Shown here: in pieces, positions 25,777 through 64,000 of the stretch
How the letters are laid out: every line of letters begins with the position of its first letter
How positions within the stretch are numbered: position 1 is the stretch's first letter
Origin: an uncultured virus (IMG/VR IMGVR_UViG_3300025132_000001)
Lineage: Duplodnaviria > Heunggongvirae > Uroviricota > Caudoviricetes
Virus record (IMG/VR): IMGVR_UViG_3300025132_000001
Reading direction: 5' to 3' (one strand)
DNA: 64,000 nucleotides
Notes under the pieces: generated by a model
What the model was told of the DNA's origin: nothing
What the model saw: only the letters and a program-made list of their open reading frames with translations
Databases searched by the model: none
Made by a program: the position numbers and the translations under genes

Positions 25777-28700
25777 ATGGATGCAATGGAATTATTAAAG
25801 CGTGCTATTGCTGAGGGTACTAATTATTCTGAATTAGTTCAACAAGTTAAAGTTGCGCAAACACCTTCAGAACAACAGCAAGGATTAAGAGGAGCTCCTC
25901 AAGGTACTTCTATGGTTTTTCCCCAATCCAAAGGTAATTTCAATACTAAGGGGATGGACTATTCCATCAATATAGATAAATTTGACAATAAAGGAGATTT
26001 AGTTCAATCTTATAGAAATGTACCTCCTGGTATAGATAATTTACCTATGGGACCAAAGACAGGTACTGTTATTGAAACTCCAGCAGAAAATCAAGATATT
26101 GCATTTGCAAAAACAGGCGGTCCTGTTAAAAAATTTCAAACAGAAGGTGTTATTGAAGGAGATAAAGAAAGTAGTGTAGAAGGACTAACTTTTAATTATC
26201 CAGAAGAAGAAACAACAGAATTATGGCAACCAAACGAATATTATAAAAAAAGATTTGGTAAAGATTTTAAGTCTACATTATTTTTTGGTAAACATTTGAT
26301 GCAAATGAATAATTGGATAAAATCCAATGATAAAGAAAATTTATTATATAATAAAGATGCTATACAAGATGAATTAAACTGGATACGGAATTATATTCAA
26401 TCTCCTAAATATTTAGAAAGGCTAGGTAAAGAATTTCCTGATTACACACAAGATCAACTTACAGAAGAAATGAATGCTAGGCTTAATAATATTAATAACG
26501 TTAATATAACTTTTGAGGATCAATTAGCTGGTGGTAAGGCTTTAGGAGTATATTGGCCAACAGAAGATAAAGGTAAAAGATTAAATAATGCTAATGTACA
26601 TGATCCATCATCATGGGTAGATAGAGAAATAAATGAAGAGAAAGCTGGTACTATAGGATTACAAACTGGGTATCATCAAACACCTGGAGACGAATCAGTA
26701 GGTCTACATGAAATAGATCACCAAGTTAATGATGGAGGTATGAGAATTCCAGCTTCTACAGAAAAGTTAATTCATGATAATACTACTCCTATGGGGCAAG
26801 GTGGATACCAAAGTCCTGAAGGTTTGCAATTTGGTTATGTAAATACTCCTACAGAATATATAGCTAGACAAACGGCAATTAGAAAATTATTACATGATGA
26901 AGGTATTTATGATTCAAATACTGAAGATTTTACTATTGATCATTATAATAAAATGTTAGAAAATGGTAGGCTAGTAAATAATAAACAATTACATGATTTG
27001 ATAGGAGATCCTTTAGGGCGCAGTGGAATGTGGGATGAAGAAGTAGGAGATTTTATACCTATGGGAACTATAAAAGGATCTGGAGAAAATTGGGAAGAAG
27101 AAAGAAGAAATAGCTTCATTGAAATGATGAATAATATAGCTATGGATCAAGATACGGATGAAAGTTTTAATTATGCTAATCAAGCTAAAACTGGAGGCCC
27201 TATTAAATATCAAACAGAAGGTACGGTTAAAAAAGATTATAATATTGATAATATATTAAATGTTTTACAAAATAAAAATTTTAAAGAAAATATCAATACT
27301 TCTTTTAATCATTCAAGTATATCAGATGGATTACCTCATGATAATGTAGGAACAGGTAGCACTAGACTTATAAATTATGAACAAGATGTAAATCATTTAA
27401 CTACAACTTTAGAACAACAAAAAAAAGCACGAGCTGAACAAATAAGACTTAGAGAGAAGCAAAAACAAATGTATATGTCTACAGGCATGTCAGAACAAGA
27501 GGCTGAAAAATTACTGTCAAATCAAGCTAGCCAATATCAACAACAACAAAACGTGAATCACTCACAGGCTGAATTTAGAGCCCCGCAATATCCTCCTCCA
27601 GTAGTTCAAAAATATACACCTACTTTTATGCCTCCTGCATTAGCGATAGGTTCTCCTGGTAGACAAAATCAATCTAACCGATTTTATACATATCATGGAT
27701 TACAAGATAATTTGAATTATAGTTTAGATCATGGATTATTTAATAGTGAAGCAGAATGGGCAGATCATATGAGAGATAGTTATGAAGGTTTTGAAAACAC
27801 TGTGCAGATGCTTAATCCATTAGCAGGAGGAGAAATGTTATTAGAAGGAATTGCAAATCAAGATCCAACACAAACAAGTTTAGCGGCGCTTAGTTTTATG
27901 ATTCCAGGTAATTTTGAAGGAAGTGCAATAAAAAGATTATATAAAGGTACAAAAAATAAAGCTAATAATTTGACTGCAAATTTCTCAAATATGCTTGGAT
28001 TACCATCTAATAAACGTCTTGGAAACACTAATCTGTTTATAGAGAGGCCAGGGGGTATAAATAATTTCTTAGTAAATAATATAGAGAGATATACAAAAAA
28101 AGCTGATTATCCATTTACAGTAGCAAATATTAATAATTCTAAAATTTTAGAAGGTTCTAAACATTTCCCAAGAAATAGACATCAGTTTATGAATTTTGAC
28201 GCTAAAGTTAATGTTCCATCTGGAAACCGAATGGGTATGAATCTAAGTAAACATTTTGGTCCAGATGGTAATCCATATTATTCAATGGGTATATCAAATT
28301 TTTATGGTAATCAGCGATTAGCAGGACAAACTATGTCTGAGTTAAATAAATTTATTCCTCAATATGGAGTTATAAAACAATATCCAATGGGATCTCTTAG
28401 TACAGATTCATGGGGTTTAAATTTAGGTAGGCTTAATAAACCTAATAAGTGGGGTAATGTAACACAGCCAAATGATTGGGTAACCTTTAATAGAATGGGT
28501 AATATGTCTCTGCCTTCACATTTAAGGCATGATCTACCTCACAATCTTGGGCTACAAGCTTTTACAAAAGGCCAAGCAGAGTTTTATAAAGATCAATTAA
28601 CTGGTTCAATGCTTAATAGACCAAATGTTGTTAAAAGTTTTGGGGGAGAACAAAATATACAATCATTTTTACCAAGATTACGTACTTATGGACAAAATAA

Positions 28701-31095
28701 AGCAGAAATAAATTTATTAAATCGCGCTAATCAAAGTTTACGACATATGGGTCCTGGCCAAGAAGGTTTACCATCTTTATATAGAATTGAACTTCCTAAT
28801 GTAGGAATACAAAAACTAACTAAACAATTAGGTGGGCCTTTACAATTTAGAACGGGAGGAGCAAAAAGAAAAGCAAGAAAAACACGTTGGGATGAAGATT
28901 TAAGACAAAATGTACAAAATACAGAAAATCTTCCATTAGTAAAACCAGCAGCAGCTTCTAGTGATTCTGAAAAAAGAAATTATTGGTTAAATTTATATTC
29001 TAATAAAAATTTTATTCAAAGAATTTTAATGCCTGATAAAGATCGTGGTAGAGAGTATATGCATCCTTCAACAGGATTAAAAATGAGCCATAATTTATAT
29101 AGAGAAGGAAATGTAATTTTTCCTTTAGTTGTAGAAGATGCATATGGAATTTTAGGAAAAGGTCCTGGACAATTACATTATTTTATTGATGAGAATGGGC
29201 AACCTGATGTTGAAAAAGCTAAACAATATGCAGCTGCAACTAAAGAATATATGCAAACAGATTCAGAAGAAGAGGCAGTATGGTTTGTAGAAAATTATCA
29301 AAGTGGTGAATATAAAAGAGCAACAGGTAATAGAAAATTATTAACGGGAGGACTTTTAAAAGGGTATAAATCAGAGCAGCCTATTTTAAAATATCAAACA
29401 GAAGGAGTTGTAGAAGAAGAAGATTCATACACACATGATTATAGTGATACGTTTTTTAATTTTTTACAACAGCAAGAAAATAATATAACTGATAGAGATA
29501 AAGATTATTATAATTGGGGATACTATACTAGAAAAGCAGATAAAAATAAAGGTATAACAGAAAAACGATTTTATCCACATACATCTGTTGAAGGAGGAGC
29601 TAAAACAATAGGTTTTGGACATAAAATAAAATCAGGTGAAGATTTTAGTAAAGGTCTTACTTGGGCAGAAGCAGAAGAATTATTAAGAAACGATATTTCT
29701 GCTCAACAACAAAGAATGGAAAATCGATATGGTACAAAATCAGATGGGCCTTATAACTGGTTTAAAAATTTAAGTCAAAATGAATATGATCTTCTTTTAA
29801 ACTATGAATTTCAAGTTAGAAATTCTTCAGTAGGACATGTAGATTGGGAAACATTAGATAGAGATAAAACAAAACCTAATAAAACTCAAGGAGGCTCTGG
29901 AACTTATCCTAATTTAATTAAAGCAATTGTTGACGGTAATTATGAAAATATATTAAAAGAATATAAAATAAAAGGGTTAGATACTAGAAATCAAGCTTTA
30001 TTAACTAATTTTATTGAACCATTAAAAAATACTTTTCATTATAGAGATGATAAACGTATTACTCAATCTCAATGGGATATGGCTATGCAAGCTAAAGACA
30101 ATGAAGATTCTTGGTTTAGTCAATTTTATACTTTAGAAAATCTTTCAGATTGGCATGATAAACAAGAAGATAAAAAAATAGAAAAAAAGAAAAAAGGAGG
30201 AATATTAGATAATATAAATTATGAACAAAAAATTGAAAAATATTTATCCCAAGGTAATACTAAATTAGCAGAAAAGGCAGCTAAATTAAAATATGAAAAA
30301 GAAAATTTTGATACAGGAGGATTTATATCTGTAACAGATCATGTTCCTAATTTAACTAAATGGCGTAGTTTACGTAATCAAAATGATTCTGTACATCCTT
30401 TAGTTGTTACAGCATTACAAGAACTAGAAATGATTTATCCTGAAGCTTTTGACGGCGTTCAGATTTCTAGTGCTCATAGAGATGCAAATTGGAATGAAGA
30501 AATAGGAGGACAACCTCATTCACGACATTTATCAGGATTTGGATTAGATTTAGTTGGAGATGGATGGAAAAATTTAAGTAATGTTTTAAATAATAGTCAA
30601 GATCCTAATATTATTGCTTGGAAAAATAAATGGACATCAGACAAACACCAAAATTTAGGAAGAGGAGTAATAGATGAAGGTAATCATTTACATTTAAATT
30701 TTGTAACACCGTCTGGATATTCAAATGATATAAATACAAATCCACCTTCACCATATTCAACTTCATATGGCATTCCAAGTTACATGAATTTAGATACTCA
30801 AACAAAAGATGAAGATGAGTATGAAAATATTTTAGATGGATATATAAGTAGTACTAATGTATTATCGTCTTCTATGTTAAGATCTCAACCTAATAGAGAA
30901 TCTAACACAGAACCTATAATAAAACCTAGAGGACACAGTAAATCTCCATTTCAATTTAGTACGTATAATTCATTAACTGAAAACTATTCATGGAATGATC
31001 CTCAGTTTTTAATGGCGTTAGGAAATAAATATGATCAAGAAAAAGCATTAAAAGAAAAAATAGCTCAAGAAACTTTAGAAAAAAATAAAGAATAA
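25777..31095 (+). CDS. Modular virion protein (zincin, lysozyme-like and peptidase M15 modules)
   Basis: HEIDH...PTEYIAR; EGGAKTIGFGH; SSAHR...SRHLSGFGLD...HLH; modules separated by xxGG/YQTEG motifs. Confidence 0.75.
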   Translation: MDAMELLKRAIAEGTNYSELVQQVKVAQTPSEQQQGLRGAPQGTSMVFPQSKGNFNTKGMDYSINIDKFDNKGDLVQSYRNVPPGIDNLPMGPKTGTVIETPAENQDIAFAKTGGPVKKFQTEGVIEGDKESSVEGLTFNYPEEETTELWQPNEYYKKRFGKDFKSTLFFGKHLMQMNNWIKSNDKENLLYNKDAIQDELNWIRNYIQSPKYLERLGKEFPDYTQDQLTEEMNARLNNINNVNITFEDQLAGGKALGVYWPTEDKGKRLNNANVHDPSSWVDREINEEKAGTIGLQTGYHQTPGDESVGLHEIDHQVNDGGMRIPASTEKLIHDNTTPMGQGGYQSPEGLQFGYVNTPTEYIARQTAIRKLLHDEGIYDSNTEDFTIDHYNKMLENGRLVNNKQLHDLIGDPLGRSGMWDEEVGDFIPMGTIKGSGENWEEERRNSFIEMMNNIAMDQDTDESFNYANQAKTGGPIKYQTEGTVKKDYNIDNILNVLQNKNFKENINTSFNHSSISDGLPHDNVGTGSTRLINYEQDVNHLTTTLEQQKKARAEQIRLREKQKQMYMSTGMSEQEAEKLLSNQASQYQQQQNVNHSQAEFRAPQYPPPVVQKYTPTFMPPALAIGSPGRQNQSNRFYTYHGLQDNLNYSLDHGLFNSEAEWADHMRDSYEGFENTVQMLNPLAGGEMLLEGIANQDPTQTSLAALSFMIPGNFEGSAIKRLYKGTKNKANNLTANFSNMLGLPSNKRLGNTNLFIERPGGINNFLVNNIERYTKKADYPFTVANINNSKILEGSKHFPRNRHQFMNFDAKVNVPSGNRMGMNLSKHFGPDGNPYYSMGISNFYGNQRLAGQTMSELNKFIPQYGVIKQYPMGSLSTDSWGLNLGRLNKPNKWGNVTQPNDWVTFNRMGNMSLPSHLRHDLPHNLGLQAFTKGQAEFYKDQLTGSMLNRPNVVKSFGGEQNIQSFLPRLRTYGQNKAEINLLNRANQSLRHMGPGQEGLPSLYRIELPNVGIQKLTKQLGGPLQFRTGGAKRKARKTRWDEDLRQNVQNTENLPLVKPAAASSDSEKRNYWLNLYSNKNFIQRILMPDKDRGREYMHPSTGLKMSHNLYREGNVIFPLVVEDAYGILGKGPGQLHYFIDENGQPDVEKAKQYAAATKEYMQTDSEEEAVWFVENYQSGEYKRATGNRKLLTGGLLKGYKSEQPILKYQTEGVVEEEDSYTHDYSDTFFNFLQQQENNITDRDKDYYNWGYYTRKADKNKGITEKRFYPHTSVEGGAKTIGFGHKIKSGEDFSKGLTWAEAEELLRNDISAQQQRMENRYGTKSDGPYNWFKNLSQNEYDLLLNYEFQVRNSSVGHVDWETLDRDKTKPNKTQGGSGTYPNLIKAIVDGNYENILKEYKIKGLDTRNQALLTNFIEPLKNTFHYRDDKRITQSQWDMAMQAKDNEDSWFSQFYTLENLSDWHDKQEDKKIEKKKKGGILDNINYEQKIEKYLSQGNTKLAEKAAKLKYEKENFDTGGFISVTDHVPNLTKWRSLRNQNDSVHPLVVTALQELEMIYPEAFDGVQISSAHRDANWNEEIGGQPHSRHLSGFGLDLVGDGWKNLSNVLNNSQDPNIIAWKNKWTSDKHQNLGRGVIDEGNHLHLNFVTPSGYSNDINTNPPSPYSTSYGIPSYMNLDTQTKDEDEYENILDGYISSTNVLSSSMLRSQPNRESNTEPIIKPRGHSKSPFQFSTYNSLTENYSWNDPQFLMALGNKYDQEKALKEKIAQETLEKNKE

Positions 31096-31166
31096 GTGCT
31101 ATATAATAAAGAATATATATATAATATATATATAATTGTAATTAATATAAGTAAATAGTAAATTTG
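31094..31166 (+). promoter_or_regulatory. Late promoter for scaffold-capsid operon
   Basis: TTG (31136-38)-N20-TAAATTTG (31159-66), plus upstream AAGTG motif. Confidence 0.7.
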
Positions 31167-31184: not shown

Positions 31185-32324
31185 ATGGCAGATGCAACAG
31201 ATAAATTAAGTATTGAAAACATCTCATTTGATGATATGATCAGTGAGGGTCTTGAAACACAACCAGAAGTAAGTGAAGCAAAAGTAGCTGAACCTGTAGA
31301 ACAACCGACACCTTTGGAAACTAAGGAAGAAGTTACGCAAGCTGAATCAGAATTAGACTCTGATGCAGTAGAAGAAAAACAACCAGAAGAAGCTACAGCT
31401 CTTGAAAAAGAAGAAGTGGCTCCTATTGATTCCCAAGTGGAACCACAACAAGAAACAGTTGAAAATCCAATAGATGAGTCAGCAACAGTAGTTTCGGGAG
31501 TTTTAAATAGATTGGGATATGAAGTTGATAAAGAATATGATGATACAGAAGAAGGATTAGTTGAATTAACTAAAGATGTAGGAGCTCAATTAGCTCAAGA
31601 TCATATGAAACAATTAATGGATGAATTTCCATTAGTAAGGCAACATCTTGAATATGTAATGTCAGGAGGAGAGTCCTCTAATTTTATGACGCAGTTTGAT
31701 CCAAGAGCTGATTATGCTCAAATCAAAGTACATGAAAAAGATTTGCCAATGCAAAAAATGTTAGTTGGTAATTATTTTAAAATGAAAGGACATGATGATG
31801 CTTTCATTAAAGATATTTTAGAAGACTATCAAGATGGTGGAAAACTTTTTGGAAAAGCAGAGTTAGCTCAAAAAGCATTAGTAAATGCACAAAGACAAGA
31901 AAGGCAAACTATGTTACAACAACAACAAGTTCAAGCACAAAAACAAAAGCAGGAACAAAGAAAATTTTGGGATGGAGTTTATGATACTATTAACACATCT
32001 AGTGAATTTGCTGGAATAACAGTTCCTGAAAGAGATAAGAAAAAGTTCTTTAAATATGTATCTGCGCCTATAAACCAACAAGGTTATACGCAAAGAGATC
32101 TAGATCATACTAACGCTAATATGGAAACTAAATTAGCAATTGACTATTTAATGTTTAAAGGATTTAAATTAAATGATATAATAAAAGCTAAAGTTGGCAC
32201 AACTAAAGCAAAAGACCTAAAAGCTAGGATAACTAAACACCAAGAAAAGGTTAAAAGCGCAAAAGGGCCAACTAGAAGAAATACTGGATTTGATATAGAG
32301 GATCTTGATCTAACAGTCATCTAG
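31185..32324 (+). CDS. Putative capsid scaffolding protein
   Basis: Acidic disordered N-terminus and coiled coil; directly upstream of major capsid gene. Confidence 0.65.
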   Translation: MADATDKLSIENISFDDMISEGLETQPEVSEAKVAEPVEQPTPLETKEEVTQAESELDSDAVEEKQPEEATALEKEEVAPIDSQVEPQQETVENPIDESATVVSGVLNRLGYEVDKEYDDTEEGLVELTKDVGAQLAQDHMKQLMDEFPLVRQHLEYVMSGGESSNFMTQFDPRADYAQIKVHEKDLPMQKMLVGNYFKMKGHDDAFIKDILEDYQDGGKLFGKAELAQKALVNAQRQERQTMLQQQQVQAQKQKQEQRKFWDGVYDTINTSSEFAGITVPERDKKKFFKYVSAPINQQGYTQRDLDHTNANMETKLAIDYLMFKGFKLNDIIKAKVGTTKAKDLKARITKHQEKVKSAKGPTRRNTGFDIEDLDLTVI

Positions 32325-32376: not shown

Positions 32377-33795
32377 ATGCAAGTAGTAAAAACGTTTTAT
32401 AACGACGCGCAAATGACTGATTCAAATAGTCTATCTGCAGCATTAATGGAAAAACCTACTGAGCTTTCACCAATTATAACACATTTGGCTGGTAAAGAAG
32501 ATCGTAAGTTTCCATTAACTATGTTGACAGAGGGTGTCGGAAATACTAAATCTATTGATAGATATGAGTATGAATATCGTGTGAAAACACACGAAATTAA
32601 TGTAAGGCCAGTTACTGTAGCAAATGCTGGTGATAAAGGTTTAGAGCCTTTTACATTAACATTTCCAGATAAATGGTTTATTTTTCCATATACTTTGATT
32701 TCAGAATCGGGTGTACAATGTAGAATTATGTCAGAGCCTGTAGCAAGTACTGATGGAGTTGGATATACATACACTCTTCAAGCAATTGCTTCTGATGGAA
32801 CTGCATCAGTTCCTGAAGCTGATTGTGCAGCTGGAGCTTTATGGGGAATGTTGTACGCAAATGTTGGAATGGACTTTTCTAGAGGTAATGCTTCTAATTG
32901 GTCTGCACCAGGATTAATCAGAAACAAAATTGGTACGGTTAGAAAATCATACCACTTTGCAGGTAATGCAAAAGATTATGTTGCTGAATTTAATCTTCCA
33001 ACAAAAGGTGGAAAGCAAACAAAGTTGTGGATGGATTATGAAGAATACAGACACATGTTAAGATTTAAAGAAGAATGTGAATTGTTATATTGGTATGGTG
33101 AAAAAACTTATGATGCAAATGGTGTTACATCAATGCATGATGAGAATGGTCAACCAGTTATTACAGGACCAGGTTTACTTCAACAAATTATTAACAAAGA
33201 TTCTTATTCAACATTAACTGCTGAAAAGTTAATTGATACTGTAGGTGACATGTTCTATGGTATGACTGATGCTCAAGATAAAGTAATTACACTTTTTACA
33301 GGTATTGGTGGTGCTAGAGAATTTGACAACGCGTTGAAAAATCATCAAGGTGGTTTTGCTAACTGGACAATTAATGCTGATAGTAAATTTATTACTGGAA
33401 CAGGTCGATCATTAGGAATGACTGGTTACTTTACTTCTTATGACCATATAGATGGTTACAAGATTAATGTAGTTAAGAATCCTATGTTTGATCATGGACC
33501 AGTTGCTCAAGCTAGAGCTAAACATCCTACTACAGGTTATTCTTTAGAATCTTACAGAATGGTATTTGTTGATAATTCAAATTATGATGGACAGAATAAT
33601 GTTCAAATGATCAACAAGAAAGGACGTGAGATGCTAAGATGGTGTGTAGCTGGATCAGTAGTCCCTAGAGGATTCGACGGTAATGGCTCAAGAGCATCTG
33701 ATATTGATGGAGCTTCTGTACACATGCTTAAAACAGCAGGTATAGTGCTTCGAAGATTTGATACTTCTCTTGATATGGAGTGTGTAGCTTCATAA
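32377..33795 (+). CDS. Major capsid protein (crAss-like)
   Basis: 472 aa; TDSNSL N-terminus, GPGLLQQI, LFTG.GG, NPMFD; position after scaffold. Confidence 0.88.
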   Translation: MQVVKTFYNDAQMTDSNSLSAALMEKPTELSPIITHLAGKEDRKFPLTMLTEGVGNTKSIDRYEYEYRVKTHEINVRPVTVANAGDKGLEPFTLTFPDKWFIFPYTLISESGVQCRIMSEPVASTDGVGYTYTLQAIASDGTASVPEADCAAGALWGMLYANVGMDFSRGNASNWSAPGLIRNKIGTVRKSYHFAGNAKDYVAEFNLPTKGGKQTKLWMDYEEYRHMLRFKEECELLYWYGEKTYDANGVTSMHDENGQPVITGPGLLQQIINKDSYSTLTAEKLIDTVGDMFYGMTDAQDKVITLFTGIGGAREFDNALKNHQGGFANWTINADSKFITGTGRSLGMTGYFTSYDHIDGYKINVVKNPMFDHGPVAQARAKHPTTGYSLESYRMVFVDNSNYDGQNNVQMINKKGREMLRWCVAGSVVPRGFDGNGSRASDIDGASVHMLKTAGIVLRRFDTSLDMECVAS

Positions 33796-34750: not shown

Positions 34751-34753
34751 AAT

Positions 34754-41905: not shown

Positions 41906-41908
41906 AAT

Positions 41909-47100: not shown

Positions 47101-47101
47101 T

Positions 47102-50262: not shown

Positions 50263-51115
50263 AAACATATCAAGTAAAAATATCATCAATAAGATTATGA
50301 GAGATCTTAAACCTAGTGATGATAATTGGATTGACGATGCAATAGAATGGATAGGCGAAGCTTTAGAGCATATTGGTGCTAGTCCACAATTAGATACTAA
50401 AAATTGTGTTTTAACTGTTTCTGAGTATAAAACTTTATTACCACATGATTTTTATTATATGAATCAAGTGGCTCAAAATACAAAAGTATCTGCAGATATA
50501 GCAAGTGAAATAGATACAATATCTACTCAATTAACAGAAATTAAAGCGTTAATAGATGCTAATCCTAATCAAAATTTGTATAATCAATTACAAGCTTTGG
50601 CTTCAAGAATGATTGTATTAGAGAATATGTATTTTAAAGATGAAGAATCTATGAATCCTATTCCATATGGTACTACAACATTTATGAAATCAGAAGATTG
50701 TGAAGATTGCTCAGAAAATTTTTTACAAGATTGGTATATTATAGAAAATGGATTTATTAAAACATCATTTAAATCAGGTAAAATTTGTGTAAGTTATAAA
50801 GCTTTTCCACTTGATGAAGAATGCTATCCAATGGTTCCAGATGATGTAAGTTATAGAGAAGCTATGTTTTGGTATGTTTATAAACAATTATTATTAGGAG
50901 GTTTTGATAAACCTAATAATCAAATTAATTATCAAATGGCCGATCAAAAATGGAAATATTATTGCACGCAAGCTAGAAATGCAGCTAATTATCCAGATAT
51001 TGATAGGATGGAAAACTTTATGAATCAGTGGGTAAGATTGATTCCAAATTTAAATAGAGCTAATAATAATTTTGAAGAGCTTGCAAAAAGAGAAAATAAT
51101 TATAGAGGATTATAA
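50249..51115 (+). CDS. Tail tubular / ring protein
   Basis: IEWIGEALE.IG, LP.D, Y.A.PLDE..YPMVPD; directly upstream of stabiliser gene. Confidence 0.7.
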   Translation: MAIYKNISSKNIINKIMRDLKPSDDNWIDDAIEWIGEALEHIGASPQLDTKNCVLTVSEYKTLLPHDFYYMNQVAQNTKVSADIASEIDTISTQLTEIKALIDANPNQNLYNQLQALASRMIVLENMYFKDEESMNPIPYGTTTFMKSEDCEDCSENFLQDWYIIENGFIKTSFKSGKICVSYKAFPLDEECYPMVPDDVSYREAMFWYVYKQLLLGGFDKPNNQINYQMADQKWKYYCTQARNAANYPDIDRMENFMNQWVRLIPNLNRANNNFEELAKRENNYRGL

Positions 51116-54100
51116 TGGCAAAATATGTAAAAGGTTTAAATAAAGATACAGGGTATGTAGATCAGCCCGACGGTTCATGGAGACATGCCAAAAATGCTAT
51201 TGTTGATAGACAGGCAGGTGGTATCTCTAATGAAGGAGGGATTGAGAGACATTTATTATTACTTTTACAAGGACATTTAGCTGCAGGAACAATTACATCT
51301 CAAGTAAGGGAAAGGGTAATTGGTAAAATTGAAGTTTCTGATGGACGTGTAATTATTTTTACTGTTACTAATAATCCTGCAGTTAATCTTAATGACTTTC
51401 CTTTTGGAGATAATCAATATAGTACTATATACGAATATAAAAATGAAGTTTTAACTTCTGTTTTAGAAACGTGGCCAGAAGGTGTTAATAATTACTTAAA
51501 TCTTGCACAATCAGGAGGTGCTACTAATAATGGCATTGATTTTAATTTAAAGTTTAATATAAATAATCCTATTGAGGGTACTTATAAATTTAGTGCAGAA
51601 GGAGATTTATTAATATATTGGACAGATGATTTAAATCCTCCAAGAGCTTTAAATGTATCGAGACAATTACGTACTAATAATCCTAAAAGAATTTATAATA
51701 AAGATCCCCAAAATACGCCTAATGATACTTATGTAGACAGGCTTAATCTTTTTCCTCATTCAGGACCTGTACCATATCTTGATCCAAATAAAGAAATTGA
51801 TAACGTTACATACCCATCTATTTCAGCAGGAGGAGGACTAGTTTCAGGAGCGTATCAATTAGCTTTAGCATATGCTGATATAGATGGAGTAGCTACTAAT
51901 TATTTAACAGTATCTAATCCTGTATATATTGTGTGTGCTAATGAAGGAGTTCGTCCTATTGAACGATATGATGGATGTCCCCCAGGATCTCAAACAGGAA
52001 AATCTGTTACTTGGATAGCAGACAAATTAAATACAGATTACGAGTACCTTCGACCTGTAGTTATTCAAACTGTAGATAATGTAGAAAAAGCATTTAAATT
52101 AAAAGACCTTGCTATTGAAGAGTCTGGTACTCTACAAGTAACTTTTACAGGATTAGAAGGTTTTGAATCATCTTCTGTAGAAGAGGTTATAATTGATGCA
52201 GTAGCATATGAAAAAGCTAAAACTCTAACACAACTAGATGGTATTTTATATTTAGGAAATTTAGAAGGAACGCAAGATGTTGGGTTCCAGCCATATGCTA
52301 ACAATATTAAATTAGAAGCTCAAACTAAAACAATTCGAGGATTTGATCCTTTTGAAATAAGTGTTGACAATTTAACAAATGGGTATAAAAGTACAACTCC
52401 TTTTCAAGATCTTATTTCTCAAGGAGCAATGAGTACTGATACTATTTCAGGGCCTAATTATTATAATTTAGAAAATGGATACAGATCTACTCGTTGGAAT
52501 GTTAATCATAAAGGGTATATGAGAGATGAAGTATATGCTTTTTATATTGCATTTATAATGAAAGATGGAAGTTTATCTTATGCTTATCATATACCTGGAA
52601 GAGAAGAAGTTATAAACGAACGTAAATTTATTGAAAATAGTACAGACTACCCATTAACAATGGCAAGTTGGATGCAAGCACATGATGCTAATTCTTGTAG
52701 TATGTCTAATTATGACAATTTACAATTTTGGGATTTAGATCAAGGAGCAGCTAATTTTGGAAATATAAATTTTCAAGATCCAGAGTTATATAATATGACA
52801 AATGGTTTAGGCCGTCGTTTTCATTTTTATGAATATAGTTATGATTTCTGGGATGCTGAAACAAGGCATATGAATTATTGGGAAAATAGAAGTGAACGAT
52901 ATCCTGATAATGTCAATTTTATAACTAAAAATATTCTTTTAACTGGACAAGATCAAATAATAGGTGATAAAGATTTAAGAAATGAACCTGTAAGACATCA
53001 TCATTTTCCATCTAATGAAAATCAAACTTATAAAGCAATAGGGGAATTAAATACAGGATTAGCTCCTGGAGAAACTAGTTTTACTCCTACAGGAGGAGTT
53101 AGATCAGGTAAATTTGCAGGTATACATCGGTTTTGGTCTGCAGATGAAACTTGGATGCAGGCTCCAACTGCTTTTGCTGTAGGTCATATGCCACATCAAT
53201 GGGTTAATGCAAATAATTTTATATTTCCTGATACTACTATGTTTGAATTAAGTGCTGGAACAGATAGCATGCCTGAAGTTGGAACATGTGTTTTTTGTCA
53301 AGTTGGTGGAGGATATGGAGATGCAAGTTATGATGGATGGGGTGGAAATGGATGTAATGGATGGGTGTATGGAATGGTTGTTGATAGTGGTCAATATTTT
53401 ACAAGTGATGGCGACTGGCTTTCAATGGGAGTTTCTCAAGGGCTTTTTCAACCAGGTCAACCGTTAACTAGTATATTAGGTGATGGGTTTTATTCAAATA
53501 ATATTTTAAATACTAATAATAATAATAGTTTATTAAATGGAAGAAAAGGTATTTTATTGGAAACTAATGGTGGGATTCAATTAAATTTATCTGGCAGTAG
53601 ATGTGGGTGTAGTGAAATTCCTGCTGATATTTTAATAGAAGCTACTGGAAGTGAGGGTAACCCTTGCTCTGGAAGTCCAAATCCTATGAATGATCCTATT
53701 ACTGGAGACTATCAATGTGCTGATGGAGGACTTGAAGCTTTAGATACTACAATAGAAAATCCTTTTGGAGGGCACAATGCTACACGTTGGAATTGTAATG
53801 CAAGTGCGAATGATCTTACTCCTTTTAATCCAAATAGTACTCAATCACAAGGTAATTGTTATTGGTTAGGAGAAACAGAATCTGTAGAAACAGAGTTAGA
53901 TGAAGGTTATATGTCCAGAGACATTAAAGTTTTAGGATTTAATTTACATGATGTAAAAGTTCCACAATCTATTGCAGATAAAGTACAAGGATTTAGAATT
54001 TATTATGCTAACCGTGGTCATCAAAATAGACGTGTATTAGGTCAAAATCCTGTTATTCCTATGGAAAGGCAAAAAGGATTATTAGCTTTATGTGGAGGCT

Positions 54101-57056: not shown

Positions 57057-59216
57057 ATGGCACAAGCACCTTTTCAAGAAAGAGACCCTGATATTCTCGA
57101 CGGCGTAAAATCTTATACCGTAAAAAAGGGGGACAATTTAACTAGATACGCATCTAGGAATAATACTACTATTGAGGAACTTATGAAACTTAATCCTCAT
57201 ATAAAAAATAAAGATAAAATATATATTGGAGATCAAATTATTCTTCCAGGTAAATGGAATGATGATGGTTCTGAATTTGTAGATACTAATGAGATTGAAA
57301 CAGATATAGTAAATGCAACTGAAATTACTGATAATCAAAACAATAATACTAACGAAGTACGAGAAGAAATTATTACTAATTTAAATAACAGACAAGATAT
57401 TCCAGTATCTGATACTCAAGCAAATTTTAATGCTTTAAAAGCAGATAAAAAATTAATCAGAAGACAAGGTCTTAAAAATACATTAGAATTTTTTGATCCT
57501 ACTAATACGCATGATGAGAGAATGCAAAACATTGCAACTAGACATGATACTAAAATGGCTAGAATTCAGAATAGATGGGCTAGAAGAGCTGCTAGACAAC
57601 AAATGCGTAAAGAAAGAAAAGATCTTAGAGGTAATAGTATTATCAAAGATCTTCGTTCAATGAATCCTAGACGATTAGAGCGTTTAGATGCTCAAAATGA
57701 AAGAAAGCATGAGAAGTTTGGAGAAAATGCTTTTGAAGGAAATTGGGCAGATTTATCTTTTGCAGAAAAACAAAAGATAAGAAAAGACCAAAGACAAGTA
57801 AATAGATTATATAGAGACGCTGAAAGAGAAGAAAGAGAAAGTACAAGAGGCCCTGGAAATATATTTGGAGGCGCCACTGGTGATGGTTTTGCACGATTAT
57901 CACAAACGAGAGAAGATAATAGAAATCTACGAAAGTCAAATAGAGATGCTAAAATGAGAGAAAAGTATAATATAGATGGAGTAGATTGGGAAGGAAATTG
58001 GGGAGATTTATCTAGACAAGAGAAGAGAAATATAAAAAGTGATTATAAACTTTTTAGTCAAATGGATGCAGATATTGCAAAATATGATGAAGAAGATAGA
58101 CAAAAAGCGTTACTGCTACAACAAGAAAATGATTTAAATAATGTTCTTCAATCACCATCAATGCAACAAGGATTAAAACAAGGAGGAATGTTAAATTATG
58201 GTTATGGAGGTAAAATGATGAATTATAATTATGGCGGTCCTTTAAAGTATGCAAGTTATGGAACTAATGAGTTACCTGATGCTTGGAAACCTTCAAGTCA
58301 AATTGCATACAATCAAGGAGTACAAGAAGTTATGGATGCTTCAAATCAAAGTGCTATGAATACTTCACAAGTAGTTAATCAAAAGTTAATGGAGGTAGAG
58401 GATGCTAATACATCTCCTGGAGTAGCTTCTGAAATAGCACAAAATGTTACAAGTATAGCAGAACAATATCCAAATTTTGCAAATAAATTAAGTACACCAT
58501 TTTCAAATTTAAAAAATTATGGTACTTTTAAAAGTCCTGATAATCCATTTTTTCAACAAAGTAAAATGCCTAGATGGTTAGCTAAAGATCTAGCACAAAA
58601 TACAACAAGTAATGCTGGTGCTAATATAGCAAGTAACATGGGTACTGAGAATTTAATTATGGGTTCAGAAGGTATGGCAGATCCATTACTTTCACAAATG
58701 GCAGCTGAAGGAAGACATGTATTACCTGAAGTTGTTTTAAATGAAGGGGCAAATATAGCTGCTGACGCAGGAACAAGTGTAGCTGGAGATGTTGCCACTG
58801 AAGGAGCAAAAGCAGGAGTTAATCCTACAGTTCCTTGGTCACTAGTTGGAAATTTAGCAGGAAAGGGTATTACTGCTTTGTCTGATGATCAAAATCCTAC
58901 AACAATGAATTTTGGTGAGACTGCAGGTACTGTAGTAAGTGGTGCTTCTACTGGAGCAGGGATTGGTAGCATGCTTCTGCCTGGAATAGGAACAATTGCT
59001 GGAGGTCTTATAGGAGGACTTTGGAGTGGATTAAGAGGTAAAAAGAAAAGAGATGATGCTAGAGACGAATACCAAGAAGTTTACGATGAGTATGTACAAC
59101 CAATGATGGCTAATCAAGGAGCTTTAAATAAAATGTCTAAAACTTATTGGGGAACAGATACAGGTAGAAGACTAGTTAGAAAAGGTGGAACTTTAAATCG
59201 TAAGTTATATGCATAA
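57057..59216 (+). CDS. LysM-containing putative ejected protein with glycine-zipper segment
   Basis: YTVKKGDNL...ELMKLNP...IYIGDQIILP (LysM); GAGIGSMLLPGIGTIAGGLIGGL. Confidence 0.75.
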   Translation: MAQAPFQERDPDILDGVKSYTVKKGDNLTRYASRNNTTIEELMKLNPHIKNKDKIYIGDQIILPGKWNDDGSEFVDTNEIETDIVNATEITDNQNNNTNEVREEIITNLNNRQDIPVSDTQANFNALKADKKLIRRQGLKNTLEFFDPTNTHDERMQNIATRHDTKMARIQNRWARRAARQQMRKERKDLRGNSIIKDLRSMNPRRLERLDAQNERKHEKFGENAFEGNWADLSFAEKQKIRKDQRQVNRLYRDAEREERESTRGPGNIFGGATGDGFARLSQTREDNRNLRKSNRDAKMREKYNIDGVDWEGNWGDLSRQEKRNIKSDYKLFSQMDADIAKYDEEDRQKALLLQQENDLNNVLQSPSMQQGLKQGGMLNYGYGGKMMNYNYGGPLKYASYGTNELPDAWKPSSQIAYNQGVQEVMDASNQSAMNTSQVVNQKLMEVEDANTSPGVASEIAQNVTSIAEQYPNFANKLSTPFSNLKNYGTFKSPDNPFFQQSKMPRWLAKDLAQNTTSNAGANIASNMGTENLIMGSEGMADPLLSQMAAEGRHVLPEVVLNEGANIAADAGTSVAGDVATEGAKAGVNPTVPWSLVGNLAGKGITALSDDQNPTTMNFGETAGTVVSGASTGAGIGSMLLPGIGTIAGGLIGGLWSGLRGKKKRDDARDEYQEVYDEYVQPMMANQGALNKMSKTYWGTDTGRRLVRKGGTLNRKLYA

Positions 59217-62200
59217 AAGAAAATTATATAAAACAGCTGGTATTCGCCAATTACCTGGTGGAGTAGAATATAATGTTCCTGGAACTAATTTAACTAGGTT
59301 TGAAGGTAACTTACATGATAATGGAGGTATCTTATTAAATCAAGATGCTGAAGTTGAAGGAGGAGAAACTAAAGGAACTGTTACAATGGCAGGAGGCAAT
59401 CCAACTGAGTATATATTTTCTACATTTTTAAATATGGACGGTACTAAAGGATATAATGATGGTAAAGAAACTATTGCAGATGCAAGTGTAAAAATTGCTA
59501 AACAAGGAGGAGATTTAAATCAATTAGCTAAATTTCAAGAAAAATTAGCAGGTAGAGATGGTACTAGAATAGCTAGAAATGGTGGTCCAATTAATTATCA
59601 AACAGAAGGTGTAGTAGAAGATGATCAACCTCAATTTAATTATCCAGGAGAGCAATTTATAGACGAAGACAGTAGTTATTGGAGTTACTATACAGCAGAT
59701 GAAAGTAAACACGATTGGGAAGGAATGGATGTTCAAACAGGAATGAGGTACATGCAAGATTCTAAACTAACAGATTATAGTTGGATATTACCTTCAGAAA
59801 TTTTAGCTGCAGGTGGTACAGGATCTGGCAGTAATTATAGATTTACTGGAGCATCTGAAAAATGGACTGAGTTTTATAATAATTTAGACTCTAATGATAC
59901 AGAGCAATTTTTTCAAAAAATGGCTATGACTCATTTAGAAGATCATGGTGCTCATAATGCTTGGGAAGATTTTGTAGGATATCCTTATATAGCAGACAAT
60001 ACAAATCCTATGCCTCATATGAAATATAAAACATCTTTAGCAGTTGATTTAAAAAATGACTATGAAGAAATGTTAGCTGCTCAAGGAGATCAAGTTGCTT
60101 TATTTAATAATGATTTTAATGGGGGTCCTATTTTAGCTACTAAAGAAGCTTTAACTGAAGATGAGATTGAAGTAATACGACAAGAACGTTTAACTGCAAT
60201 TAGTGTTGCGTGGGATGATATGGAAGATTATGAAAAATTAGTTGTTTATGATAATTTAAAAGAATTTGCACCTGATGCAATTACAGATAGACAGCAAGGA
60301 TGGTATAATGAATTATCAGGAGATTTATGGCAAATGACAAAACCTCTTTATCAAGATTTTCAAAATTCAAGAAATGCGTATGTTAGTGGAATGTCTCATG
60401 CAGAAGATCCTACACAACAAGATATACTTGGAACACAGCCTGGGCAAATAGGTAGTACAGAAGGTATAGGGGCAGGAACACAGCTTACAGCTAATATAAT
60501 TGATATATTAGGATTAGATACAAAGTATTTTGATTCAGGATCAATTCAAGATTTTACTTATGATCAATGGATGGCATTAGGCATGCCTCAATCTTATGAA
60601 GAATTAGGTATTATACCTTTAACTACATTAATGGATCCAGATAAAATATTTACTGAAAATGGTCAGACAAATGATGCTTATATTTTAGATATAATTAATC
60701 AACATCGTCCTGAAGATGTGGCTGATATGACAGAGCAGCAATATATGCAAGCGGGAGTTGGTAAGAATTTATTTAGATATATAACAAGTATACCAGGAGC
60801 GGTAAAATATGCTCGTACTCACGGATGGAAAAATCTTTGGGGAGGAATGACAAAAGGTAAAGCTTATTTTAAAAATGCTAGAACAAAACAATGGACACAA
60901 CATCCTGCAAGTAAACAGTTTCAAAATAAAAATTTTAAAAAACCAAAAGTAAAAACTAAAACTTATCCTGATACAGTTGGTGGATTTATAGATAAACAAC
61001 TTTCTAGAGATGGATTTTTAGCAGCCCATTGGAAAAAAATTCTAGGTGGAGGTGCAACAATTTGGGGTATTTGGCAAGCAGGTAAGGATATAGCAGATAT
61101 AGGGCCTGGAGAAGTAGAAGATAGTGAAGGTTATACACCAGGTGGAGGAGATCCTAATTTTCATCCAAATTATATTAATATAATTGATATTAATTCAGAT
61201 GGGTTTGATAATGCTGTGTTAGATTCTTTACAAGGTGTTATAGAAGATTCAGGAGTACAAGAAAATCCTGGGTATGTCCCGCCATTAAATTTTGAACAAA
61301 AACGTTATGGAGGAGAAGTATATGATACAGGAGGAGATATGAAGCCAATATCAATTACTGGAGATTATCAATTATGGGATGGTACCGTATTTTTTAAAGG
61401 TGCAGATGGTAGTTTAATGGCATTTACAACTCCAGAAGAATATGAAGCACACCGAGCAGAAAGAGGTTTAGAAACTGACTATGAATTTAAAGATATGGTA
61501 ACTTTTGAAGATGATAATTTATCTGATCAAGAATTACTAAGCTTTATGGACGCAGCAGATTTAGTATCAAAAGGCCATAAATATAAAGCTGCGCCTTATT
61601 ATCAAGAAATAGCTGGAAGAGTAACTAGTGGGGAATCACCTGATAATACAAATCCTAATCCTAATAATAATACTAATCCTAATCCTAATAATAATACTAC
61701 TACTGATAGATCTCAAATTCCTACAACAAATGTAGCTTCTGATGTGTATTATCAAGGAGATGTTTATGGAGATATTGCAAAACAACAAGGTAAACAAACA
61801 TTTGAATTTGCAGATGGTAATACCATAGATCTATATGGAGACGAGCATTTATTTGGACAAATTTCTGCAGGCGGAGTAGACGCATGGGGAACAGATTGGT
61901 TTAAAAATGCAAATCCAGAAATATTATCAGCTGCTGGTATCACTAGTTTTGCAGATTTTAAAGATCCTGCTAATATTTTAGCATATCAAAAAGCTTGGAA
62001 TCAAGCAAATCCTAATAATCTTATTAGAGAAGATAGCTTTTTTGGAGAACAAACTACTAGAACTGCATTTGCTCCTACAGAAGTAAATGAAAATAATCCA
62101 CCAGATGAAACTCCTCCAGGAGTACAATGGAAATCTCCAAACGACTGGAGATGGTTAATACCAGCAGTAGGGGCAGCGGCACAATTAATTGGGCCTTTAA

Positions 62201-62799
62201 AAGCAAGAAATTTAAAACCTCGTTTTACTAGTGCAATGATGCAACCAAAAACAAGTTTAGAAAGAGTTGATATGAATCAACAAAGATCGGCAAATACAGC
62301 TGATTTAAATGCTTTAAAAACTTATGTAGGTAATAATGTAGGAGGACCTGCTTCTATGGCAAATATACAAGCTGCATTTGCTGCTAAACGAAGAGCTGAT
62401 GCTGAAGTATGGCAAAAAGAAAATGAAATGAATGCAGGTATTGCAAATGCAGAATCAAAAATAAATGCAGAAATTGTAGCAAATAATGCTAAAAATGCAT
62501 TAGCTGCAAATACTTTTAATGCTGAAGCGCTTACTAGAAACGACGAAACTAAATTAGCTGCTTGGGACGCAATGGGTAATAGAATAGGTGGAATGGCTAA
62601 AGATTGGTTAGGATATTTAGCTGAAAGAGATAAAGCGAGAGCAATAGCTGGACCAGAAATGTACGATAGAAATTTATTTTTTGCTGCAAATCCACATTTA
62701 GATCCAACTTCAGAAGAAGCTGCAACTGCTCTTAATGAATGGAGAAAAGGTAAAAAACAAAATACTTATAAGATGTTATATAATAAAAATTGGACATAA
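59209..62799 (+). CDS. Large putative ejected (cargo) protein
   Basis: GNLHDNGG...EVEGGE N-terminal domain; GG/YQTEG motifs; PG-binding-like YQKAWN...DSFFGEQT; Ala/Asn coiled-coil C-terminus. Confidence 0.65.
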   Translation: MHKRKLYKTAGIRQLPGGVEYNVPGTNLTRFEGNLHDNGGILLNQDAEVEGGETKGTVTMAGGNPTEYIFSTFLNMDGTKGYNDGKETIADASVKIAKQGGDLNQLAKFQEKLAGRDGTRIARNGGPINYQTEGVVEDDQPQFNYPGEQFIDEDSSYWSYYTADESKHDWEGMDVQTGMRYMQDSKLTDYSWILPSEILAAGGTGSGSNYRFTGASEKWTEFYNNLDSNDTEQFFQKMAMTHLEDHGAHNAWEDFVGYPYIADNTNPMPHMKYKTSLAVDLKNDYEEMLAAQGDQVALFNNDFNGGPILATKEALTEDEIEVIRQERLTAISVAWDDMEDYEKLVVYDNLKEFAPDAITDRQQGWYNELSGDLWQMTKPLYQDFQNSRNAYVSGMSHAEDPTQQDILGTQPGQIGSTEGIGAGTQLTANIIDILGLDTKYFDSGSIQDFTYDQWMALGMPQSYEELGIIPLTTLMDPDKIFTENGQTNDAYILDIINQHRPEDVADMTEQQYMQAGVGKNLFRYITSIPGAVKYARTHGWKNLWGGMTKGKAYFKNARTKQWTQHPASKQFQNKNFKKPKVKTKTYPDTVGGFIDKQLSRDGFLAAHWKKILGGGATIWGIWQAGKDIADIGPGEVEDSEGYTPGGGDPNFHPNYINIIDINSDGFDNAVLDSLQGVIEDSGVQENPGYVPPLNFEQKRYGGEVYDTGGDMKPISITGDYQLWDGTVFFKGADGSLMAFTTPEEYEAHRAERGLETDYEFKDMVTFEDDNLSDQELLSFMDAADLVSKGHKYKAAPYYQEIAGRVTSGESPDNTNPNPNNNTNPNPNNNTTTDRSQIPTTNVASDVYYQGDVYGDIAKQQGKQTFEFADGNTIDLYGDEHLFGQISAGGVDAWGTDWFKNANPEILSAAGITSFADFKDPANILAYQKAWNQANPNNLIREDSFFGEQTTRTAFAPTEVNENNPPDETPPGVQWKSPNDWRWLIPAVGAAAQLIGPLKARNLKPRFTSAMMQPKTSLERVDMNQQRSANTADLNALKTYVGNNVGGPASMANIQAAFAAKRRADAEVWQKENEMNAGIANAESKINAEIVANNAKNALAANTFNAEALTRNDETKLAAWDAMGNRIGGMAKDWLGYLAERDKARAIAGPEMYDRNLFFAANPHLDPTSEEAATALNEWRKGKKQNTYKMLYNKNWT
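61645..61698 (+). repeat. 24-bp in-frame tandem repeat (NTNPNPNN x2)
   Basis: AATAC(A/T)AATCCTAATCCTAATAAT twice, plus a partial copy. Confidence 0.85.
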
Positions 62800-64000
62800 T
62801 GAAATATAAATTTCAACAAGGAGGCGGGTTTAATTTTCAACCATATCAATCAGTATTTGAGCCAACAGGAAAACTGGAAATTGCTCAATATATGCGTGAA
62901 AAATATGACCAAACTAAAGAAAACAGAGATTTAGTTTCAAGGGCATTAGCTACATTTGAAACTTCTCCTGGAGACGCACATTTGGTTACTAAAGCTACTG
63001 ATCATATTAATGAGCTTCTTGCTGGAGTAGATGCAACTGGTGCATATGAAAAAGCAGGAGCTGTAGTTTCTGAAGCATATAATTATTTACTTAGCGATAA
63101 AGGATTAACGTTAGCAAAGCGATCTCAAGATATGCGTAATAAAGAACTTGCTTGGCAATCTGAATATCAAATGAAAAATCCTGGAGCACGTGTTTTAGGA
63201 TTTGGAGACGAAGCATGGAAAACTCATGTTTCTTATAAAACAAATGATGATGGTAGTATATATGAAAATATATATCGACCTACTAATGAAATACAAGCTG
63301 ATTATTCAGCTGAAATGAATAATATGTTAAAACGTATTGGCCAGTCTGTAGACGCATCAGGTAATGCTATGGGAATTACTCAACAAAATGCAGACATGAT
63401 AGGAGAATTAATGTTTAATTCTTATTTAGGTGATATGGCTGAAGAAGCACAATCTGGAGAATTTGATTATAATAATGTCACTTTAACTGGATCTGATGTA
63501 GGTATGCAAGATTATAAAAGATTAATGGAGATAGATTTAAAGCATATTGCTAATATGGAAGAAAGACATTTAGCTGCAATTAGTGATATTAAAAAAAGAA
63601 TTAAGTTTACTACACAACAATGGGTAAATCAAACTGCAATGTCTCAAAATTTAAAAGTAGATGGAGTTATACCGCATGATGAAATTAATGATTTAACTAA
63701 ATCAGAAACAAATGTTTCAGTTGATGCTAGTAAAACAGTTGATGCTATATTAGATAATAATGCAAATACATTAGATGTTCTTGATAATCCAAATATGACT
63801 CAATTAAGTAAAGAGGAGGCTTTGGTTCAGTATAATATACAACAATCTCTTAAAAATAACTTTAGAACAAATGCTTTAAAAACTGGATTATCTTCACAAG
63901 GTATTGATGCAGGACAAACTAATCAAATTATTGACGAGTTTAATTTTTATGAAGGAACTGGAGAAGGACAATTATTTGAAGGTCATGAAGAACTATATAT
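62799..64000 (+). CDS. Large putative cargo protein (runs off window)
   Basis: TAATG-coupled start; MKYKFQQGGGFNFQPYQSVF... Confidence 0.7.
   Translation, partial: MKYKFQQGGGFNFQPYQSVFEPTGKLEIAQYMREKYDQTKENRDLVSRALATFETSPGDAHLVTKATDHINELLAGVDATGAYEKAGAVVSEAYNYLLSDKGLTLAKRSQDMRNKELAWQSEYQMKNPGARVLGFGDEAWKTHVSYKTNDDGSIYENIYRPTNEIQADYSAEMNNMLKRIGQSVDASGNAMGITQQNADMIGELMFNSYLGDMAEEAQSGEFDYNNVTLTGSDVGMQDYKRLMEIDLKHIANMEERHLAAISDIKKRIKFTTQQWVNQTAMSQNLKVDGVIPHDEINDLTKSETNVSVDASKTVDAILDNNANTLDVLDNPNMTQLSKEEALVQYNIQQSLKNNFRTNALKTGLSSQGIDAGQTNQIIDEFNFYEGTGEGQLFEGHEELY

Follow-up and report, generated by a model that had tools for sequence, protein, structure and literature searches.

Crassviruses carry megadaltons of protein cargo, and no other phages are as abundant in the human gut. 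In phage T4, a short capsid-targeting sequence near the N-terminus of otherwise unrelated internal proteins is linked to their packaging. Both this sequence and the prohead-protease sites of T4 and phiKZ-like phages have Glu at their end, and the prohead protease that cuts them has been identified. Adenovirus core precursors and African swine fever virus (ASFV) polyproteins are processed at Gly-Gly by clan-CE proteases. The adenovirus sites read (M/I/L)xGG, and in both viruses the sites belong to basic, DNA-associated internal proteins in which GG sets off short basic terminal peptides. Encapsulins use cargo-loading peptides to address cargo inside an HK97-fold shell. In polymorphic toxins, a short conserved peptide (e.g. 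VENN in CdiA) marks the exchange point of variable modules. Here, we describe a Gly-Gly peptide tag that recurs in the putative cargo proteins of a crAss-like phage. The tag is encoded by a 64,000-nucleotide stretch of DNA from an uncultured virus (IMG/VR record IMGVR_UViG_3300025132_000001), which we refer to as the window.

Two described systems stand closest to this locus. Polyvalent proteins occur in phages and conjugative elements, and zincin-like peptidases were proposed to process them (Iyer, Burroughs, Anand, de Souza, Aravind 2017, PMC5512222). Like the window carriers, they are large virion-module proteins with unrelated enzymatic domains and rapid domain shuffling. Conversely, the window architecture is organised by a conserved carrier domain of DUF192 fold and by a tag at the seams. 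The available text of Iyer et al. (2017) is about domains; no junction peptide figures in it, and neither linkers nor crAss are mentioned. The second system is gp45 (C1) of Bacteroides phage PhicrAss001 (Bayfield et al. 2023, PMC10172136), a cargo protein that cryo-electron microscopy shows bound at sites on the tail, the portal and the capsid. In that phage, the positions after the muzzle gene are occupied by cargo proteins gp45 and gp46 and by RNA-polymerase proteins (PMC10172136). The gp45 paper does not mention the tag; its available text holds nothing on glycine or a signal, and one unrelated mention of a motif. We found no description of the tag in the literature searched.

In its strong form, the tag reads K-x-GG-P-h-x-[YF]-QTEG. 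This is the form taken locally by a wider unit, [Y/F/M]-[Q/K/D]-x-G-G in basic surroundings, which is frequently doubled at a spacing of 3-4 residues. GG, the aromatic-Q pair and the last G stay fixed. QTEG is a flavour of this lineage and not the core. The sites appear to be in floppy linkers: after the carrier domain, between exchangeable modules, 6-22 residues from the start of a protein and before basic tails. The exchangeable passengers are HExxH peptidase-like, lysozyme-like and M15 peptidase modules, and others with no assigned family. We favour, at a probability of roughly 40%, the reading that crassvirus internal (cargo) proteins share a conserved tag at their seams and ends, that the peptide described here is its form in this lineage, and that it works as an uncut, multivalent docking or handling tag.

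All copies in the window are on the plus strand. The 1772 amino acid (aa) protein encoded after the portal gene (25777..31095), a putative polyvalent cargo protein, consists of a DUF192-fold head domain and tag-separated modules. It carries FAKTGGPVKKFQTEGVIE (copy 1; aa 110-127; 26104..26157), QAKTGGPIKYQTEGTVK (copy 2; aa 469-485; 27181..27231), the variant TKQLGGPLQFRTGG (copy 3; aa 1015-1028, with GGPLQFRTGG at aa 1019-1028; 28819..28860), which is followed by a basic run, and LTGGLLKGYKSEQPILKYQTEGVVEE (copy 4; aa 1189-1214; 29341..29418). The weak units KKKKGG (aa 1471-1476) and FDTGG (aa 1511-1515) precede the M15 module (30184..30321). In the 719-aa LysM protein, aa 374-402 (58176..58262) form three to four tandem GGxxxYxYGG units of degenerate sequence, KQGG-MLN-YGYGG-KMMN-YNYGG-PLK-YASYG. 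The same protein ends in RKGG, nine residues before the stop codon, and TLNRKLYA (59178..59213). The 1196-aa protein starts with a degenerate unit, YKTAG (aa 7-11; 59227..59241), which aligns with YKQGG in G002 (88.5 kb) and with YQRGG in G003 (80.3 kb), both near-complete genomes of relatives. It also contains IARNGGPINYQTEGVVED (aa 121-138), with FNYP at aa 143-146 (59569..59646), and the variant QKRYGGEVYDTGG (aa 697-709, with YGGEVYDTGG at aa 700-709; 61297..61335). The next open reading frame (ORF) leaves the window and begins with the unit MKYKFQQGGG (62799..62828); it is homologous to a 753-aa protein encoded after the C1-like gene of G002. The muzzle protein (1970 aa) has no copy. The peptides quoted by the initial annotation are all in place. 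The four carriers are the 1772-, 719- and 1196-aa proteins and the truncated ORF.

In a six-frame translation of the window, QTEG occurs four times in one frame, within two proteins, and never in the other five frames. Each of the four is preceded by Y or F, and three have GGP 2-3 residues before. A loose expression for the full motif matches the 1772-aa protein three times, the 1196-aa protein twice and a 649-aa ORF (42894-44843) once. It has no match in the other 58 of 61 ORFs examined, all 22 minus-strand genes included. The QTEG motif first noted is thus real, with its four copies in one frame, but it is not the conserved core in relatives. KKKGG and RKGG, also listed as copies, do not exceed chance alone; we count them only as fitting the general unit of relatives. 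The annotation had further pointed to FNYP.E downstream of two copies. FNYP does occur twice in the window, each time 16-20 residues 3′ of a tag copy (as FNYPEE at 26191..26208 after copy 1), but a relative has FNYE at this place and the element is not general. Gly and Pro codons vary among the window copies. Hence, the repeat is kept at the peptide level, and we rejected recent DNA duplication or gene conversion as the origin of the copies.

The carriers sit in a Crassvirales virion module. The window has a GC content of ~31% and derives from a crAss-like phage. Pfam identified the major capsid gene (32377-33795; Crass_capsid, 6.5e-80), tail ring proteins (CrAss_Ring_1, 1.6e-55; CrAss_Ring_2, 8.2e-29) and the muzzle protein (51115-57027; crAss_MUZ, 8.6e-38). 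The terminase (21353-23317) and portal (23398-25770; phrog_6547) were assigned by PHROGs. Directly 3′ of the portal gene is the 1772-aa ORF, then a scaffold-like 379-aa gene and then the capsid gene. The muzzle gene is followed by the genes for the LysM protein and the 1196-aa protein, and by the ORF truncated at the window end. As in polyvalent proteins, the 1772-aa protein combines at least two unrelated activities (DUF192-fold, HExxH, lysozyme-like and M15). Its position by the portal suggests that it may be packaged and delivered with the DNA; for the post-muzzle genes, proteomics of PhicrAss001 gp45-46 suggests the same by analogy (PMC10172136).

We found no match to the 1772-aa or 1196-aa protein in GenBank phages, and no relative of the 1196-aa protein in IMG/VR. 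A strict DNA pattern retrieved three IMG/VR stretches: an identical fragment, a spurious frame of 39 aa (L003) and one real relative (L004). Searching IMG/VR with an alignment of the conserved head domain gave 157 relatives, and 80 loci were retained. The post-portal relatives vary from 118 to 2257 aa in length, and only the first ~105 residues are conserved. In the window protein, the head ('carrier') domain spans aa 22-104 (25840..26088). AlphaFold2 (AF2), with a 54-sequence alignment, modelled it as a block with predicted local distance difference test (pLDDT) values of 79-92. In Foldseek, this model is a clear match to 3m7a (E = 2.3e-4) and 3pjy (E = 5e-4), with template modelling scores (target) of 0.51-0.57 and a root-mean-square deviation of 1.8-1.9 Å. 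The score against Pfam DUF192 (PF02643) is 20.8 bits, below the cut-off of 27, and that of relative P0015 is 26.7 bits. Conservation of the head domain stops at [Y/M]-[Q/K]-x-G-G, and both Gly residues are present in at least 90% of the 54 sequences. Of 71 distinct proteins, 67 have a unit after the head domain, and 30 have a doubled one there.

The ends of these proteins are also marked. GG occurs within the last 25 residues of 29 of the 60 relatives with a complete end, compared with 6 of 296 control ORFs. In 24 of those 29, at least three Lys/Arg residues follow the GG, and basic C-terminal tails such as RRRGGMIDRRKKRRKRK occur. Minimal relatives of 149 aa comprise the head domain, YKKGG and a basic tail only. 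Longer relatives have modules placed between YKKGG and an xGG that is followed by the same tail (xGG-VLYNKAYTKK). The tails after GG in L017, L019, L026, L033 and L078 have Cys-containing ends (…KCKYGCW, …KSNSCW, …GGYWCQ).

The tag is specific to the cargo class. The double motif was found 57 times in 72 distinct post-portal proteins (49,177 aa; 1.16 per 1000 aa) and nine times in 507 other ORFs (179,970 aa; 0.05 per 1000 aa), a 23-fold difference. Seven of the nine control motifs fall at a single orthologous site of the scaffold-like protein, and another is in the window 1196-aa protein. Shuffled sequences gave 2.0 on average and 6 at most. In G002 and G003, units are found in the proteins encoded after the portal and muzzle genes, at the start of a 4329-aa giant and in a poly-basic protein of 81 aa. 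There are none in the replication genes of the window, G002 or G003. A 5-residue pattern matched eight times in 4,087 aa of cargo-class protein in the window and three times in the other 15,874 aa; the counts for cargo class and rest were 10 and 2 in G002, and 12 and 5 in G003. In the three genomes the enrichment has Fisher p values of 3e-4 to 5e-4, for a cargo class set by gene position after the matches were seen. An equal frequency in non-virion proteins, which the initial annotation had named as refuting its proposal, is not observed. A motif profile built from 12 instances retrieved only six proteins at E <=1e-3 from 1.84 billion representatives; the motif is too short for such a survey of a large protein database. 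P0018, a bacterial Ig-repeat protein, was rejected as a carrier, since its match is a chance look-alike inside a folded repeat. The Flavobacterium phage FpV4 group, which is cultured and was found via the muzzle, lacks both a DUF192 post-portal gene and a clear unit. Hence, the tag is not universal among muzzle-bearing phages.

Modules are shuffled at the tags. In relative L004/L007 (IMG/VR record G001), the capsid protein is 86% identical to that of the window, and the post-portal protein is 2257 aa long with seven copies. BLASTP between the two post-portal proteins gave tag-flanked blocks that are common to both and differ in order. The HExxH block is first in the window protein and fourth in L004/L007. 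The module at aa 1054-1185 (28936..29331) is 41% identical to aa 1616-1775 of L004/L007 and is tag-flanked in both proteins. Homology of the window protein to the M15 module of L006 begins at aa 1516, one residue past FDTGG. More generally, 29.6% of homology-block ends (n=587) fall within 10 residues of a tag, compared with 7.3% of random positions, counts that are descriptive because they come from related sequences that are not independent samples. The ends are concentrated 0 to +4 residues past the last Gly and are mostly head-domain ends. In the AF2 model, aa 107-152, tag copy 1 included, have pLDDT values of 34-38 and no secondary structure; the adjoining domain is at ~90. Taken together, the reordered modules and the clustering of block ends bear out the initial proposals that the motif marks module borders of virion-module proteins and that a modular system shares a selected signal; that the motif lies between domains, and is not buried in them, holds for the one copy modelled. 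The data hence support a modular cargo system whose members share one tag. We propose that modules are gained, lost and reshuffled at tags because only tag-keeping junctions are tolerated.

The same observations could be read passively. The Gly-Gly peptide would then be a flexible hinge with no partner; junctions would be tolerated only in linkers, and cassettes would carry linker ends with them. The disordered context and the breakpoints at GG agree with this. The minimal and extended relatives resemble insertions between YKKGG and xGG-VLYNKAYTKK, and the likeness of copies within a genome could stem from duplication of cassettes. However, linkers do not normally keep aromatic-Q/K-x-G-G with a 3-4 residue spacing and a basic context where the domains share 21-60% identity, and here the same pattern is also kept in unrelated protein families. 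A hinge would be purposeless 6-20 residues from a start codon or 9 from a stop codon. The differing codons mean that copies are not recent duplications. In addition, tag copies are 53.5% identical within a genome and 38.7% identical between genomes, a difference reached in 0 of 2000 label shuffles. Such genome-specific flavours imply a common reader rather than a passive hinge, and we regard a hinge without a partner as unlikely.

The first module of the window protein (26158..27180) contains HEIDH (aa 311-315) and a conserved downstream P-T-E, and is a candidate zincin-like metallopeptidase. It has no Pfam match. Using jackhmmer, homologues were found in P0011 and L029/L034/L036, and twice in P0019; the P-T-E is invariant in four homologues. 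Tags are present on both sides of the module in four of four homologues, at only 21-25% identity. This, together with the differing codons, argues for selection at the peptide level. The AF2 model of aa 100-500 (the module and both flanking tags), made with a 4-sequence alignment, has a mean pLDDT of 39.5, too low to bear on the fold or on copy 2. One of the four homologues, in L007 (aa ~1440; L007:13562-14914), reads NEITH and is probably inactive; two other HExxH modules of that protein are intact. The remaining recognisable passengers of the window protein are a phage-lysozyme-like module (29593..29730; Pfam Phage_lysozyme, E = 9.7e-4, 19.9 bits, below the cut-off of 22.3) and a peptidase M15 module (30403..30567; Peptidase_M15_3, 24.7 bits, cut-off 23.2; phrog_894 endolysin).

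With candidate peptidases between tags, the tag could be a processing site. A virion protease, or a host protease after ejection, would cut at or beside Gly-Gly, trim leaders and tails and free the modules. In this it would resemble adenovirus core precursors, which are processed at their (M/I/L)xGG sites, or the T4 capsid-targeting leader, which is removed. We rate this as somewhat unlikely, though only a little behind the favoured reading. The tags are in disordered linkers between modules of separate activities, and homology blocks start or stop within a few residues of GG. N-terminal copies 6-22 aa from Met look like leaders, GG with a short basic tail is found in 24 of 60 relatives, and fused and split gene forms join at units. 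The highly basic 81-aa protein of G002 has three units. Tag-flanked HExxH modules occur in the largest carriers (window, L006, L007, L029/34/36, P0011 and P0019), and P0019 has HE..H-like motifs in three modules. Processing by zincin-like peptidases is also what Iyer et al. (2017, PMC5512222) proposed for polyvalent proteins. Conversely, Pfam searches of 39 window proteins or pieces, and of 45 of the 62 G002 ORFs of at least 70 aa, gave no match to a prohead-type protease (S78/U35/S80), ClpP or S49, and none to a clan-CE cysteine protease (C5/C48/C57/C63). The G002 scan took in every ORF of at least 130 aa except the 4329-aa giant and left out 17 shorter ORFs; Pfam may miss a divergent protease, and many of the modules match no family. 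The HExxH module is weakened as the cognate protease. Most motif-bearing relatives are without HExxH, and jackhmmer found no homologue of the window module in G002 or G003, where units are present. Pro directly follows Gly-Gly in five window copies. The residue before the last Gly is highly variable (E, G, K, T, N, A, S). Units are also kept at termini where cutting would remove merely 6-9 residues. A literature search found nothing on proteolytic processing of Crassvirales virions, and the available text of two PhicrAss001 papers (PMC10172136, PMC6235969) does not mention cleavage or proteolysis.

Unlike the T4 and phiKZ signals, the tag has fixed Gly-Gly and aromatic residues, has internal and C-terminal copies too, and is accompanied by no protease gene that we found. 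Adenovirus and ASFV are eukaryotic viruses that encode and package a cysteine protease, and none was detected here by Pfam; the likeness is an analogy only. Toxin junction motifs and encapsulin peptides differ from the tag in sequence, carriers and biological context.

The nearest counterpart of the window carriers is PhicrAss001 gp45, which starts with MAKKKIKRRGKMPPNIFDTGG and ends with EYTGGTKKAKGGKVRTKKKKGLTYG. As in the window, its gene directly follows the muzzle gene. Its basic N-terminal leader ends in F-D-T-G-G (aa 17-21), and its C-terminus has EYTGG-TKKAKGG and a basic tail. Further x-x-GG units are at aa 260, 371 and 559, the last just past the portal-binding domain (aa 425-552). 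The window shows the C1-type combination too: a post-muzzle position, a basic leader with x-x-GG and a C-terminal GG with a basic tail. In 39 IMG/VR relatives of gp45, [FY]xxGG at aa 16-21 and GG with a basic tail are kept, even where the flanks differ. A Gly-rich hydrophobic stretch followed by basic residues is common to gp45 and the window LysM protein. In hhalign, the N-terminal domain of the 1196-aa protein aligned with the gp45 portal-binding domain over 53 columns (probability 38%, E = 3.3e-4), a profile likeness that is suggestive only. BLASTP of window proteins against gp45 gave no match. PF25725 (crAss_CARG1), searched at E up to 1, did not match the 719-aa or 1196-aa protein or their G002/G003 homologues; gp45 itself scored 2.3e-66. 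The window C1-like protein also differs from gp45 in being encoded by two genes and in having a LysM domain and extra modules. The sequence GG-(I/D)-x-I-K-x-x-N-(R/K)-G-(K/R)-F-T-A is a small conserved element that occurs after a unit in the unrelated carriers L034, L029, L062 and L132/L133, and at aa 371-395 of gp45.

The two window genes are a split form of one. The LysM protein (57057..59216; Pfam LysM) is the front half and the 1196-aa protein (59209..62799) the back half of a C1-like cargo protein. G003 has a single post-muzzle protein of 1054 aa. Residues 574-711 of the LysM protein align to its aa 295-432, and aa 5-135 and 1016-1155 of the 1196-aa protein align to its aa 546-669 and 865-1008. 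Since the single protein aligns to both, we infer a gene split that falls at units. Homologues of the 1196-aa protein in a large protein database (P0002, P0003 and P0016) share only the end domains and have 4-5 tags each.

The basic surroundings of the units raise the possibility that they contact DNA. Basic, Gly-rich, aromatic units and poly-basic tails would bind the packed genome, much like RGG boxes. The flanks of the units are basic, as are C-terminal tails such as RRRGGMIDRRKKRRKRK, and the G002 81-aa protein has three units and poly-Lys. This protein (L086:18416-18661, minus strand) has the units SYKKGG, KKKGG and RYQTGG around its poly-Lys stretch; it is encoded between a gene of the ring-protein region and the ring 1 gene, and has no counterpart in the window. 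DNA binding is nevertheless quite improbable as the role of the tag. Several window copies range from neutral to a net charge of -2, and non-specific binding would not lead us to expect a conserved Q, an aromatic residue or genome-specific flavours. The N-terminal part of PhicrAss001 gp45 occupies the tail, at a distance from most of the DNA (PMC10172136).

We return to the tag as an uncut handle. A single common partner in the particle would read it. The tag would recruit internal proteins, and each module, into the cargo zone of the procapsid, and may keep them strung like beads so that they leave in order and unfolded via portal and tail. An uncut handle is favoured because the doubled unit is ~13 residues, longer than the usual protease site, and has Pro after GG in five copies. 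It is also favoured because terminal units are kept where nothing would be released (the C-terminus of the LysM protein and the 149-aa minimal relatives), and because Pfam found no protease family. The matching layout of the PhicrAss001 cargo protein gp45 counts for a handle as well. PhicrAss001 virion bands range from 15 to >300 kDa, including 150, 270 and >300 kDa (PMC6235969), which suggests that the cargo of this phage is not generally chopped.

Several points weigh against this reading. The full-length giants of PhicrAss001 are without a strict unit, so the bands are no test of cutting at units. Tags at every seam, even between two cell-wall enzymes, fit a cut polyprotein at least as well as a handle. 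The basic N-terminal leaders and C-terminal tails beside GG resemble propeptides. In the AF2 model, the tag in cis is not docked on the head domain. The N-terminal unit decays in split forms, being YKTAG in the window and absent in P0002 and P0003; hence, the tag is not needed on every module. The dependence among relatives in the block-end counts and the setting of the cargo class after the fact, both given above, count on the same side. A broader possibility combines addressing with cutting. In this case, aromatic-x-x-Gly-Gly would be a universal Crassvirales peptide code, both a loading address and the cut site of a particle-borne protease. We consider this rather unlikely.

Other features of the window and its relatives accompany the carriers. 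The protein encoded at 31185-32324 (379 aa) is acidic (isoelectric point 4.69), has a Glu/Pro/Gln-rich start of ~100 residues and contains one YQDGG. In every relative it is encoded between the genes for the polyvalent protein and the capsid, where PhicrAss001 has gp31, and it is likely a scaffolding protein. A small lysis-type cluster (46106-47936) is embedded in the structural module. It encodes a thioredoxin whose start resembles a signal peptide (46106-46486), a protein of the DUF5675 family (46621-47100; E = 1.2e-25) and a holin-like protein with three transmembrane segments (47544-47936). Two neighbouring ORFs at 40856-42682 have signal-peptide-like starts (MKKLIFFFILLSTISSAQ... and MKRIIYILVLFIGSFAYGQ...). 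In G002, an 826-aa protein has a type IX secretion system (T9SS) C-terminal sorting domain (Por_Secre_tail, 1.4e-9). The signal-peptide-like starts and this sorting domain point to a Bacteroidota host that exports phage proteins. A staphylococcal-nuclease-like gene (20727-21101; 5.9e-11) is immediately upstream of the terminase gene. The sign of the GC skew switches at ~16-18 kb, where minus-strand replication genes meet plus-strand virion genes. Downstream of the 4329-aa giant, G002 encodes an 1842-aa protein (L085:5762-11290, minus strand) with an ART-PolyVal ADP-ribosyltransferase domain (3.1e-17). This protein is a candidate effector injected against the host, and its presence links the tag system with the polyvalent proteins that Iyer et al. 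(2017) described.

Under the peptide-code reading, if true, a protease would trim basic leaders and tails and cut polyvalent proteins into enzymes, the phage counterpart of adenovirus-type maturation, and the code would offer a means of loading proteins of choice into crAss-like particles. The tag is common to the cargo proteins of marine and gut crassviruses, and its presence in the culturable PhicrAss001 makes it a concrete, mutable target for the study of cargo choice, packing and release. It would explain the quick swapping of enzymatic modules. It also offers a simple sequence marker for predicting injected, unannotated proteins of uncultured crass-like phages.

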